From: Escherichia coli | GTDB lineage: Bacteria > Pseudomonadota > Gammaproteobacteria > Enterobacterales > Enterobacteriaceae | Length of the DNA stretch: 64,000 bases | Assembly: GCF_016903815.1 (NCBI RefSeq) | Contig: NZ_CP069973.1 | Reading direction: 5' to 3' (one strand) | Shown here: one piece after another, positions 11,683-60,692 of the stretch | How the letters are laid out: each line of letters begins with the position of its first letter | How positions within the stretch are numbered: position 1 is the stretch's first letter | Notes under the pieces: generated by a model | Seen by the model: only the letters and a program-made list of their open reading frames with translations | Told to the model about the DNA's origin: nothing | Databases searched by the model: none | Program-made: the position numbers and the translations under genes

Positions 11683-11733
11683 TAATCTCTATGCTCCGGC
11701 TGAAGGGATGTTTTTGCCGGACACAAAGGATAA

Positions 11734-34220: not shown

Positions 34221-34581
34221 CGTAACTTACTCATTATTCTTACATTGACGACTAAGCTGCGGGCAAAGTAACGCCTTTCCGGGTGTGAACCGATGGCCTC
34301 GTGTCTAGTCGCGTCGCCAACCTCACGGTTATCGTCAGCTCAAAGAGGCGCAGAGTGTCGGTTGCCCGTTTTTCATGCGGAAAAACAGCGCAATTATCAA
34401 AGAAACAGACTGGGTATTACTCTCCAGAAATATTTCCATCTACCGGTAAGGACTGCAACCCGCAGCCCGCTAACTGCCTGAAAGATCAATACGTCTTACG
34501 CCATTGCTGCGTGGATGATCGGTCGGGCAAAATGGGTTATTCCGTAAAATTTCTTGTTTTAACAAGGATGGACACGGAAAC
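34221..34581 (-). promoter_or_regulatory. rne 5' untranslated leader (autoregulatory)
   Basis: Long untranslated region upstream of the rne ATG; its extent (about 360 nt) is taken from established E. coli knowledge, not measured here. Confidence 0.55.
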
Positions 34582-35863: not shown

Positions 35864-36448
35864 CTATCCCATCAGCGGGTTTTTCCCTTCCCGACGTAAC
35901 ATCTGACACAGCGCGATTAGCGGTAAACCAACCAGCGTGTTAGGATCACGCCCCTCTAAACGCTCAAACAGCGTAATGCCAAATCCTTCACTCTTAAAGC
36001 TACCCGCGCAGTGCAGGGGATGCTCTTTACGCACGTAATTATCAATCTCCGCCTCGCTCAGGTGACGGAAATGGACGTCAAAAGGCTCCACTTCTGTTTG
36101 TAGATGCCCATTCGCCGAATTAAACAACGCCAGTCCAGTATAGAAGGTGACGATATTGCCGCTGGCTTTGCGTAATTGCAGACGGGCATTTTCTTCCGTT
36201 AACGGTTTACCGGTGATTTCGCCATCAAGAACACATACCTGGTCTGAACCAATAATTAAATGATCCGGATAACGTGACGCCAGAGATTGCGCTTTTTCTT
36301 GTGCCAGTCGAAGCACCAACTGTCGCGGTGATTCGTCGCTGCGTGGGGTTTCGTCGACCTCTGGTGCTGCACATTCAAAAGAGATTTGCAGTTTTTCCAG
36401 AAGAGCGCGACGCCAGGGCGAGGTGGAGGCTAAAATAAGTTTAGGCAT
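35864..36448 (-). CDS. yceF: Maf-like nucleotide pyrophosphatase YceF
   Basis: 194-aa protein from [20 protein letters not shown]... Confidence 0.9.
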
Positions 36449-36634
36449 ATTTTTTTCCATCAGATATAGCGTATTGATGATAGCCATTTTAAACTATGCG
36501 CTTCGTTTTGCAGGTTGATGTTCGTTATCAGCACTGAACGAAAATAAAGCAGTAACCCGCAATGTGTGCGAATTATTGGCAAAAGGCAACCACAGGCTGC
36601 CTTTTTCTTTGACTCTATGACGTTACAAAGTTAA

Positions 36635-41761: not shown

Positions 41762-43033
<1,272 letters not shown>

Positions 43034-43057
43034 GTTGTCATTTCCCACCCTTATAAA

Positions 43058-43080
43058 AGGTCCGCTTGCGGGCCTTTTTT
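43058..43080 (+). terminator. Rho-independent terminator of the acpP-fabF transcript
   Basis: aggtccgc-ttg-cgggcct hairpin followed by TTTTTT, 25 bp after the fabF stop. Confidence 0.7.
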
Positions 43081-43081
43081 C

Positions 43082-43794
43082 TTGTGCACAGAAAACCCCC
43101 AGCTAGGCTGGGGGTTCCGGAAAGCTTTCAGCTTTAAGCCAGTTATTAAAACCCCTTTTGATTTGTTAAAACACCTTGCGGTCTGGCAACTGCAAGTGTC
43201 AAACAAGAAATCAAAAGGGGGTCCCAATGGGGAACGAAAAGAGCTTAGCGCACACCCGATGGAACTGTAAATATCACATAGTTTTTGCGCCAAAATACCG
43301 AAGACAGGTGTTCTACAGAGAGAAGCGTAGAGCAATAGGCAGTATTTTGAGAAAGCTGTGTGAGTGGAAAAGTGTACGGATTCTGGAAGCTGAATGCTGT
43401 GCAGATCATATCCATATGCTTGTGGAGATCCCGCCCAAAATGAGCGTATCCGGCTTTATGGGATATCTGAAAGGGAAAAGCAGTCTGATGCTTTACGAGC
43501 AGTTTGGTGATTTGAAATTCAAATACAGGAACAGGGAGTTCTGGTGCAGAGGGTACTACGTCGATACGGTGGGTAAGAACACGGCGAAGATACAGGATTA
43601 CATAAAGCACCAGCTTGAAGAGGATAAAATGGGAGAGCAGTTATCGATTCCCTATCCGGGCAGCCCGTTTACGGGCCGTAAGTAACGAAGTTGGATGCAA
43701 ATGTCAGATCGTGTGCGCCTGTTAGGGCGCGGCTGGTAAGAGAGCCTTATAGGCGCATTTGAAAAACCTCCGGCTATGCCGGAGGATATTTATT
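43082..43794 (+). mobile_element. IS200 (IS200/IS605 family) insertion sequence, copy 1
   Basis: About 713 bp that is apparently identical to 59980..60692 (ORF-track translations identical on both strands); encodes an HuH Y1 transposase; left-end hairpin cccccag-ctagg-ctggggg (43096..43114) and right-end hairpin cctccggc-tat-gccggagg; boundaries set by where the two copies diverge, plus or minus a few bp. Confidence 0.9.
43227..43685 (+). CDS. tnpA: IS200 transposase TnpA (HuH Y1 family)
   Basis: 152-aa protein MGNEKSLAHTRWNCKYHIVFAPKYRR...ADHIHMLVEIP...; HxH motif and Tyr-containing C-terminal region; closely matches Salmonella IS200 TnpA from memory. Confidence 0.9.
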   Translation: MGNEKSLAHTRWNCKYHIVFAPKYRRQVFYREKRRAIGSILRKLCEWKSVRILEAECCADHIHMLVEIPPKMSVSGFMGYLKGKSSLMLYEQFGDLKFKYRNREFWCRGYYVDTVGKNTAKIQDYIKHQLEEDKMGEQLSIPYPGSPFTGRK

Positions 43795-43863
43795 AGCTTT
43801 TATTCTGACTTGTTCCGTAGTGAACATGCTGCCACACTAACAATTCTCTGATAAGGAGCCGGT

Positions 43864-44673
43864 ATGTTCTTAATTAACGGTCATAAGCAGGAATCGCTGG
43901 CAGTAAGCGATCGGGCAACGCAGTTTGGTGATGGTTGTTTTACCACCGCCAGAGTTATCGACGGTAAAGTCAGTTTGTTATCGGCGCATATCCAGCGACT
44001 ACAGGATGCTTGTCAGCGGTTGATGATTTCCTGTGACTTCTGGCCTCAGCTTGAACTAGAGATGAAAACGCTGGCAGCAGAACAGCAAAATGGTGTGCTG
44101 AAAGTGGTGATCAGTCGCGGTAGTGGCGGGCGAGGATACAGCACATTGAACAGCGGACCGGCAACGCGGATTCTCTCCGTTACGGTTTATCCCGCACATT
44201 ACGACCGTTTGCGTAACGAGGGGATGACGTTGGCGCTAAGCCCGGTGCGGCTGGGGCGCAATCCTCATCTTGCAGGTATTAAACATCTTAATCGGCTTGA
44301 GCAAGTATTGATCCGCTCTCATCTTGAGCAGACAAACGCTGATGAGGCGCTGGTCCTTGACAGCGAAGGGTGGGTTACGGAATGCTGTGCGGCTAATTTG
44401 TTCTGGCGGAAGGGCAACGTAGTTTATACGCCGCGACTGGATCAGGCAGGTGTTAACGGCATTATGCGACAATTCTGTATCCGTTTACTGGCACAATCCT
44501 CTTATCAGCTTGTCGAAGTGCAAGCCTCGCTGGAGGAGGCGTTGCAGGCAGATGAGATGGTTATTTGTAATGCGTTAATGCCAGTGATACCCGTACGTGC
44601 CTGTGGCGATGTCTCCTTTTCGTCAGCAACGTTATATGAATATTTAGCCCCACTTTGTGAGCGCCCGAATTAG
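43864..44673 (+). CDS. pabC: Aminodeoxychorismate lyase PabC
   Basis: 269-aa protein matching PabC. Confidence 0.93.
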
Positions 44674-59950: not shown

Positions 59951-59979
59951 CCCCGCGACATGCCGTGTCGCGGGGATTT
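59951..59979. terminator. Terminator hairpin downstream of bhsA (ancestrally shared with convergent ldtC)
   Basis: ccccgcgaca-tgccg-tgtcgcgggg 10-bp stem, flanked by TTTTTT upstream and ATTTT downstream. Confidence 0.7.
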
Positions 59980-60692
59980 TTGTGCACAGAAAACCCCCAG
60001 CTAGGCTGGGGGTTCCGGAAAGCTTTCAGCTTTAAGCCAGTTATTAAAACCCCTTTTGATTTGTTAAAACACCTTGCGGTCTGGCAACTGCAAGTGTCAA
60101 ACAAGAAATCAAAAGGGGGTCCCAATGGGGAACGAAAAGAGCTTAGCGCACACCCGATGGAACTGTAAATATCACATAGTTTTTGCGCCAAAATACCGAA
60201 GACAGGTGTTCTACAGAGAGAAGCGTAGAGCAATAGGCAGTATTTTGAGAAAGCTGTGTGAGTGGAAAAGTGTACGGATTCTGGAAGCTGAATGCTGTGC
60301 AGATCATATCCATATGCTTGTGGAGATCCCGCCCAAAATGAGCGTATCCGGCTTTATGGGATATCTGAAAGGGAAAAGCAGTCTGATGCTTTACGAGCAG
60401 TTTGGTGATTTGAAATTCAAATACAGGAACAGGGAGTTCTGGTGCAGAGGGTACTACGTCGATACGGTGGGTAAGAACACGGCGAAGATACAGGATTACA
60501 TAAAGCACCAGCTTGAAGAGGATAAAATGGGAGAGCAGTTATCGATTCCCTATCCGGGCAGCCCGTTTACGGGCCGTAAGTAACGAAGTTGGATGCAAAT
60601 GTCAGATCGTGTGCGCCTGTTAGGGCGCGGCTGGTAAGAGAGCCTTATAGGCGCATTTGAAAAACCTCCGGCTATGCCGGAGGATATTTATT
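59980..60692 (+). mobile_element. IS200 (IS200/IS605 family) insertion sequence, copy 2
   Basis: Apparently identical to copy 1, offset 16,898 bp, same orientation; left end abuts the bhsA terminator T-tract and right end lies 12 bp from the ldtC stop. Confidence 0.9.
60125..60583 (+). CDS. tnpA: IS200 transposase TnpA (HuH Y1 family), copy 2
   Basis: Protein identical to the copy 1 TnpA. Confidence 0.9.
   Translation: MGNEKSLAHTRWNCKYHIVFAPKYRRQVFYREKRRAIGSILRKLCEWKSVRILEAECCADHIHMLVEIPPKMSVSGFMGYLKGKSSLMLYEQFGDLKFKYRNREFWCRGYYVDTVGKNTAKIQDYIKHQLEEDKMGEQLSIPYPGSPFTGRK

Follow-up and report, generated by a model that had tools for sequence, protein, structure and literature searches.

The 64,000-nt stretch of Escherichia coli DNA analysed here (the window) contains two copies of the insertion sequence IS200C without a single difference between them over exactly 713 nt, the second lying +16898 from the first. 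The segment 42700–44200 matched many complete E. coli chromosomes at 100%, and in the matching E. coli records the open reading frame at 43227–43685 is annotated as IS200C transposase, flanked by fabF and pabC. The features of the two copies and of the adjoining host DNA are as follows.

43055–43081, + strand: intrinsic terminator of host fabF, hairpin 43055–43078 followed by a T-run, called as terminator-like; fabF ends at 43033
43082–43794, + strand: IS200C copy 1, 713 bp, between fabF and pabC, delimited by the run common to both copies, by 13 junctions and by RefSeq annotation
43094–43116, + strand: left-end hairpin, 10-bp stem and loop TAG, equal to IS200 nt 12–34, from the fold, helix 1 covariation and the literature
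43121–43135, + strand: small hairpin AAAGCU-UUC-AGCUUU, from the Rfam structure and helix 2 covariation
43146–43236, − strand: putative antisense sRNA art200 (STnc490), coordinates transferred from Ellis 2015 and from the fold
[quoted passage not shown]
43215–43222, + strand: SD sequence AAGGGGGU, the same as the published IS200 SD
43227–43685, + strand: tnpA, 152-aa Y1 (HUH) transposase, stop codon included, from the open reading frame, PF01797 and annotation
43243–43271, − strand: candidate art200 promoter, −35 TTTACA at 43271–43266, 17-nt spacer, −10 CTAAGC at 43248–43243
43767–43785, + strand: right-end hairpin CCTCCGGC-TAT-GCCGGAGG, followed by the terminal ATATTTATT to 43794; terminator-like on both strands, from folds and conservation
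59951–59979, + strand: terminator hairpin and T-run of host bhsA, directly before copy 2
59980–60692, + strand: IS200C copy 2, between bhsA and ldtC, 100% identical to copy 1, from the Rfam match and annotation
59992–60014, + strand: left hairpin of copy 2
60050–60118, + strand: SD stem-loop of copy 2
60125, + strand: ATG of copy 2
60665–60683, + strand: right hairpin of copy 2

The element begins with TTGTGCAC on the left and ends with ATATTTATT on the right. The base just outside these ends varies at 13 independent E. coli junctions, which fixes the boundaries of IS200C. The left and right flanks were unlike at all 13, with neither target-site duplication nor terminal inverted repeats. The identical TnpA products matched PF01797 (Y1_Tnp) and contain the HIH motif within CCADHIHMLVE. 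The single open reading frame for a Y1 (HUH) transposase and the subterminal hairpins at both ends on the + strand (43094–43116 and 43767–43785) place the element in the IS200 group of the IS200/IS605 family, and it is IS200 (IS200C).

Both copies start 1–4 nt after a canonical host terminator. A terminator-like hairpin with a T-run also lay directly 5′ of the element at 13/13 E. coli IS200C sites, and upstream of it at 42 of 55 cross-phylum loci versus 11 of 1060 control positions (L003–L095). In nine of the ten other E. coli sites, tnpA was co-oriented with the upstream gene. Upstream-terminator enrichment, strongest for IS200/IS605, has been described (bioRxiv 10.1101/2025.07.22.666184), as has IS200C insertion into a ‘T-rich region’ (PMC6963479). 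The bias may reflect targeting, in which an A-tract of the element acts as a guide with the T-tract, or selection.

The left-end hairpin, AACCCCCAGC-TAG-GCTGGGGGTT, consists of 10 perfect pairs, 8 of them G-C, closed by a 3-nt loop; its folding energy was −18.7 kcal/mol for RNA (z −3.6), and for DNA it was −11.7 kcal/mol. The original prediction had drawn a 7-bp stem with a 5-nt loop at 43096–43114; the hairpin is real, and that drawing covers only the core of the 10-bp stem. A 30-nt pattern over this core (43096–43125) gave exactly 2 occurrences versus 0 expected. With nt 1 at 43083, the sequence 43094–43116 is the GC-rich perfect palindrome of element nt 12–34, which Ellis 2015 (PMC4513863) gives as a bidirectional terminator of Salmonella IS200. 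Compared with an intrinsic terminator, the hairpin has the GC-rich stem-loop but lacks the U-rich tract 3′ of the stem. Its tail on the + strand is UUCCGGAA, UUCCGG as RNA, without a U-tract, and its tail on the − strand is UUUUCUGU. A consensus terminator scan did not call it on either strand; the same scan did call the fabF terminator (43055–43078) and the right-end hairpin. With no U-tract and no scan call, the terminator role rests on the Salmonella experiments, which are cited at second hand, and the label comes from these experiments rather than from sequence features. An invariant A-tract precedes the hairpin across IS200-group relatives, so that it resembles a terminator of leftward transcription more closely. 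The proposal that it stops incoming transcription thus has published backing for Salmonella IS200; the sequence features of such a terminator are absent here, and host terminators adjoin the element.

The second structure lies just before the start codon of tnpA. Its lower stem is a perfect 13-bp helix between CCCCTTTTGATTT (43152–43164) and AAATCAAAAGGGG (43208–43220), which encloses an interrupted upper stem and the apical hairpin at 43176–43195. The stem-loop folded at −32.1 kcal/mol (z −5.3), none of 200 shuffles folded as well, and the minimum free energy and centroid structures both retained the SD stem. The SD sequence lies 5 nt before the tnpA ATG at 43227; G43217–43220 are paired with a CCCC partner and G43221 is free, so that four of its five G's are inside the stem. 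The inverted repeat therefore corresponds to the second repeat of IS200 (nt 69–138), with the SD in its 3′ arm. The long inverted repeat overlapping the SD, as originally proposed, is present, and the structure prediction suggested then as a check gave stable pairing over the ribosome-binding site. In the published map of IS200, the second inverted repeat (nt 69–138) hides the SD and tnpA transcription starts near nt 40 (PMC4513863); the map also gives the SD AAGGGGGU and a C/A-rich stretch at −26 to −21 (Ellis 2015, PMC4513863). Mutations in the lower stem at −75 to −69 raised the 30S toeprint 20-fold and tnpA-lacZ expression 50-fold (Ellis 2015, PMC4513863), and the corresponding positions, 43152–43158, are intact in the window. 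The small hairpin at 43121–43135 lies at about the published transcription start (about nt 40, about 43122); on its own it was no better than shuffles (z −0.9), yet it is conserved in the family. Both copies keep all these structures, as had been claimed: they are identical over 713 nt and each has the Rfam match, and retention tells nothing beyond this identity.

The opposite strand of the same region would encode the antisense sRNA art200. Its published start at nt 153/154 maps to 43235/43236, and its 3′ end would lie past the stem, at GGGG-UUUU. When the minus-strand segment running from 43236 down to about 43146 was folded, its energy was −35.5 kcal/mol (z −5.1), and UUUUAA came directly after the last stem. 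Since this fold closes with the inverted repeat and UUUUAA, the repeat would also form the body and terminator of art200. Of the art200 promoter, the −35 has been called good and the −10 hardly recognisable (Ellis 2015, PMC4513863). The candidate at 43243–43271, within the opening codons of tnpA, fits this description and is invariant from E. coli to IS1541A of Y. pestis. A consensus promoter scan over 42950–43900 returned no promoter for tnpA or art200, so that neither can be confirmed by sequence. art200 would presumably be expressed from these copies. Published work on Salmonella IS200 found that art200 and Hfq repress tnpA independently (Ellis 2015, PMC4513863). The two structures named in the original account of tnpA control are right, and art200, Hfq and the processed 5′UTR sRNA were omitted from it.

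Conservation of the left end was assessed with Rfam and with relatives of the transposase. The Rfam family RF01405 (STnc490) matched both copies at 43094–43217 and 59992–60115, each with 146.1 bits (cut-off 56) over model positions 1–124 of 124. This match runs in the sense of tnpA and takes in the left hairpin, whereas the published STnc490/art200 is antisense and runs from nt 153 to about nt 64; what RF01405 models seems to be the left end on the sense strand, not the sRNA itself. We collected 80 loci encoding transposase relatives, one genome per species, from Enterobacterales, Vibrio, Desulfovibrio, Sutterella and many Clostridia. They have the same left-end architecture with other stem sequences: CCCCCAG/CTGGGGG becomes CCACTCG/CGAGTGG, and CCCC/GGGG becomes CUCC/GGAG. 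A covariance model built from this alignment with a hand-given structure gave 82 matches with 77 distinct left ends. Across these 77, 95.5% of cells paired, compared with 77.5% after column shuffling and no more than 48% when partners were slid, in an alignment that was fitted to the model structure and so favours it. In the same alignment, double changes occurred in 25 of 29 pairs, and all four helices covaried from Gammaproteobacteria to Clostridia. Paired cells amounted to 98.4% in helix 1, 81% in helix 2 (the small hairpin, where 3/3 pairs covary), and 95.9% and 96.7% in helices 3 and 4.

In a plain MAFFT/RNAalifold analysis, too, most left-hairpin pairs had changed on both sides and none on one side only. 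That analysis found just this hairpin and the apical one; the SD stem was missed because its SD-side arm was misaligned between lineages, which made the covariance model necessary. Hardly any G-U pairs occur in the left-end hairpin or in the SD stem, whereas the apical hairpin retains G-U in 64 of the 77 sequences. Their scarcity suggests that the first two structures have been selected to fold on both strands, or as DNA.

A DNA-level role is suggested as well by the other end of the element. In nearly every relative, a hairpin of the form CCnCCnGC-nnn-GCnGGnGG lies about 80 nt past the stop codon and is followed by ATATTTATT. A count over the two 19-nt sequences gives 14 of 19 positions shared by the right and left hairpins, with compensatory changes at the others. 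Both hairpins fold as DNA, and they lie 12 nt from the left end and 9 nt from the right end, respectively. As established for IS608, transposases of the family bind to hairpins near the ends of the top strand when it is single-stranded (PMC3201880). The right-end twin, the Y1_Tnp product and this family mechanism point to the left hairpin as a TnpA binding site. Most likely, the left hairpin is, together with its near-twin at the right end, also a transposase-binding subterminal hairpin, so that the named terminator would probably double as the predicted DNA binding site of TnpA. The earlier reading of the hairpin as a transcription block only had left this Y1 DNA-binding role out. One relative (L024) has a sequence of the left-end type, AACCACGCGTTAGACGCGTGGTT, as its right-end hairpin, and weak matches to the left-end model occur 3′ of tnpA at L024:1228–1307 and L017:1223–1340. 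GC skew was positive on the + strand over the whole window (1–64000), which indicates that the + strand is the lagging-strand template. Both copies thus have their hairpin-bearing top strand on the lagging-strand template, the orientation expected for replication-coupled single-strand transposition.

Taken together, we consider it likely, with a probability of roughly 85%, that the window carries a standard IS200-group left end, a compact one with several functions, intact in two identical copies. The left hairpin would be the published IS200 terminator and likely also a subterminal hairpin bound by the Y1 transposase on the single-stranded top strand. In the tnpA 5′UTR, the arm CCCCUUUUGAUUU is predicted to pair with AAAUCAAAAGGGG, placing four of the five SD G's inside a stem-loop of −32 kcal/mol. 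Sequestration of the SD, shown for Salmonella IS200 to block 30S binding, would act in the same way here given the near-identity of the sequences. From the opposite strand, an art200 of about 90 nt starting at 43235/43236 would use the same inverted repeat and pair with the 5′UTR, and Hfq, as published, would presumably be a further block. The net effect would be very low TnpA synthesis per copy. These functional statements about the IS200C of the window are inferred by transfer from Salmonella IS200.

We weighed this reading against simpler and more distant ones. If control were at the RNA level only, the hairpin would just terminate transcription and the stem-loop would just hide the ribosome-binding site, and the two alone would explain a silent element. 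The published statements on Salmonella IS200 and the 50-fold derepression by stem-loop mutation speak for such an account. We consider it quite improbable, because no U-tract follows the hairpin on the strand of incoming transcription and the scan did not call it, host terminators adjoin both copies, elements across the family have an equivalent same-strand hairpin at the right end, further layers of control (art200 and Hfq) are documented, and the lineage of the window has about 20 copies. That the inverted repeats are chance or generic palindromes without a specific role is almost certainly wrong: the small middle hairpin, which alone equals its shuffles, would suit this view, and a chance origin of the repeats was ruled out by the Rfam match, the z-scores and the compensatory changes across phyla.

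The left end might alternatively be a domesticated RNA locus, in which the processed 5′UTR (tnpA-110/-90), art200 or both act in trans and control of the transposase is secondary. Trans action on invF/SPI-1 in Salmonella is consistent with this idea (Ellis 2017, PMC5435999; also the abstract of a 2024 preprint). It would also fit in-frame stops in tnpA of Erwinia mallotivora (L005:701–1159, codon 30) and Edwardsiella ictaluri (L006:701–1159, codon 51), where the left end and 5′UTR are intact, and three loci (L002, L007 and L060) that have lost an arm of the left hairpin yet keep the SD stem-loop. Against it, Firmicute elements with intact tnpA covary too, which argues for a function at the level of the element, and the pseudogene cases are few and could be recent. 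In addition, the SPI-1 target invF is, to our knowledge, absent from E. coli, and we know of no E. coli target. We therefore regard domestication as improbable and retain the standard multifunctional left end as the preferred reading. Some further irregular relatives were seen: at L014 and L036 the frame from the match start has 41 and 129 codons, respectively, versus about 153, with the left ends and 5′UTR structures intact; at L002, L007 and L060, replacement or mutation of the left hairpin's 5′ arm has abolished the transposition hairpin; and most of the 5′UTR is deleted at L009.

The left end of Salmonella enterica IS200 was reportedly described by Beuzon et al. in 1999, as cited in Ellis 2015 and Sittka 2008. 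The window elements share with Salmonella IS200, in unchanged order and spacing, the hairpin at nt 12–34, the repeat at nt 69–138, the SD, the C/A stretch, the ATG at nt 145 and the antisense start at nt 153/154. They differ in length (IS200 is quoted as 707 bp, versus a 713-bp IS200C unit by junctions), in a TnpA that begins with MGNEKS, and in copy number (about 20 in the lineage of the window versus 6–7 in S. Typhimurium). The same two-stem-loop description of IS200 is given in Sittka 2008 (PMC2515195). The match to the Salmonella layout put forward in the original prediction was borne out, with the terminator of nt 12–34 and the SD inverted repeat of nt 69–138 at the same positions. Each of the published IS200 features named above falls on the corresponding sequence of the window, so that the original prediction amounts to the published reading, correctly transferred. 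The left-end structures are ordinary, described IS200 biology; with no departure from it, the observation is already known.

IS1541A of Yersinia is 87% identical overall to IS200C. The paired positions of its left hairpin and SD stem and its candidate art200 promoter are all invariant, and it differs by a few substitutions in the linkers and the interrupted upper stem-loop. Expression of STnc490 from IS1541 has been reported (Ellis 2015, PMC4513863). IS608 and ISDra2, members of the IS200/IS605 family that move by single-strand ‘peel and paste’, share with IS200C a Y1 HUH transposase, same-strand hairpins near both ends, the lack of terminal inverted repeats and of target duplication, and insertion beside a short specific flank, which is T-rich in IS200C. 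Their palindromes are imperfect, whereas the IS200 hairpins are perfect. For transposase binding to single-stranded hairpins and cleavage at guide-defined sites, shown for IS608, IS200C offers a structural parallel. The RNA-IN/RNA-OUT system of IS10 is similar in that an abundant cis-encoded antisense RNA acts against the 5′ end of the transposase mRNA and RNA structure hides the ribosome-binding site, but its sequences are unrelated and its transposase is of another class. Unlike the IS10 fold-back in read-through RNA, the anti-SD arm is held within IS200's own transcript (start about nt 40), and sequestration is therefore not limited to read-through RNA.

The left-end devices have to be set against the abundance of the element. 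The element had a median of 1 matching place, and a maximum of 35, in 5,426 complete E. coli genomes; the genomes listed as 100% matches to the window had 18–27 places each, with 22 in strain 7/2. The insertion between fabF and pabC is common to 219 genomes. Ten other insertion sites, which served as a sample of copy identity in place of all ~22 copies of one genome, encode an identical TnpA, with element DNA 0–5 nt off over 713 nt. According to a population study, IS200C is among the few E. coli IS families with more than 10 copies, and such numbers are a sign of recent proliferation. Transposition is probably tightly repressed per copy; the stronger statement that it is tightly repressed here is in tension with some 20 copies per genome against an E. 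coli median of 1. The spread in this lineage means that repression did not prevent the expansion of IS200C. Intact repression devices thus coexist with a roughly 20-fold expansion in copy number, and the element should not be assumed to be dormant.

A mutation in the left end was considered as a cause of the copy expansion and found no support. In comparison with other E. coli copies, including two from single-match genomes, the left end differed by one linker base, A for G at 43136, which leaves the structure unchanged. No paired base is changed, so that loss of left-end structures does not explain the expansion. The A at 43136 (and at 60034), where E. coli and Yersinia copies have G, lies in an unpaired linker at about nt 15 of the tnpA transcript. 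In Salmonella, nt 12–19 of this transcript are part of the invF-pairing region (PMC5435999).

In non-proteobacterial relatives (L010–L080), a TAnAAT box lies within the stem-loop at a constant 6 nt before the apical hairpin, 3′ of the anti-SD arm. Thirty-eight of the 53 non-proteobacterial sequences match TATAAT there at 5 or more of 6 positions, and TGn is present in 18, whereas all nine proteobacterial sequences scored match it at only 4 of 6, with TAAAAC in this place (window 43164–43172, TGTTAAAAC). It is conceivable, although we think it rather unlikely, that either the TAnAAT box is a promoter of the element's own, situated past the anti-SD arm and decayed in Enterobacteria, or the A-tract guides insertion beside terminator T-tracts. 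If the box were a promoter, ancestral transcripts would be translatable and the stem would silence read-through RNA only, as in IS10 and IS50; enterobacterial dormancy and reuse of the 5′UTR as an sRNA could then stem from promoter decay. In the related reading, the invariant A-tract 5′ of each hairpin would be the guide for insertion next to a terminator T-tract. The observation on the left ends changes little for this window, where a textbook IS200 feature is confirmed. Its value for annotation lies in two IS200C copies, their ends, a putative antisense sRNA gene and the host terminators upstream. Other Rfam matches above the gathering score in the window were the rne 5′UTR element (34245–34581, − strand), SraB sRNA (36442–36610, + strand), the PyrC leader (11683–11732, − strand) and ES036 (CssrF) sRNA (2510–2552, − strand).
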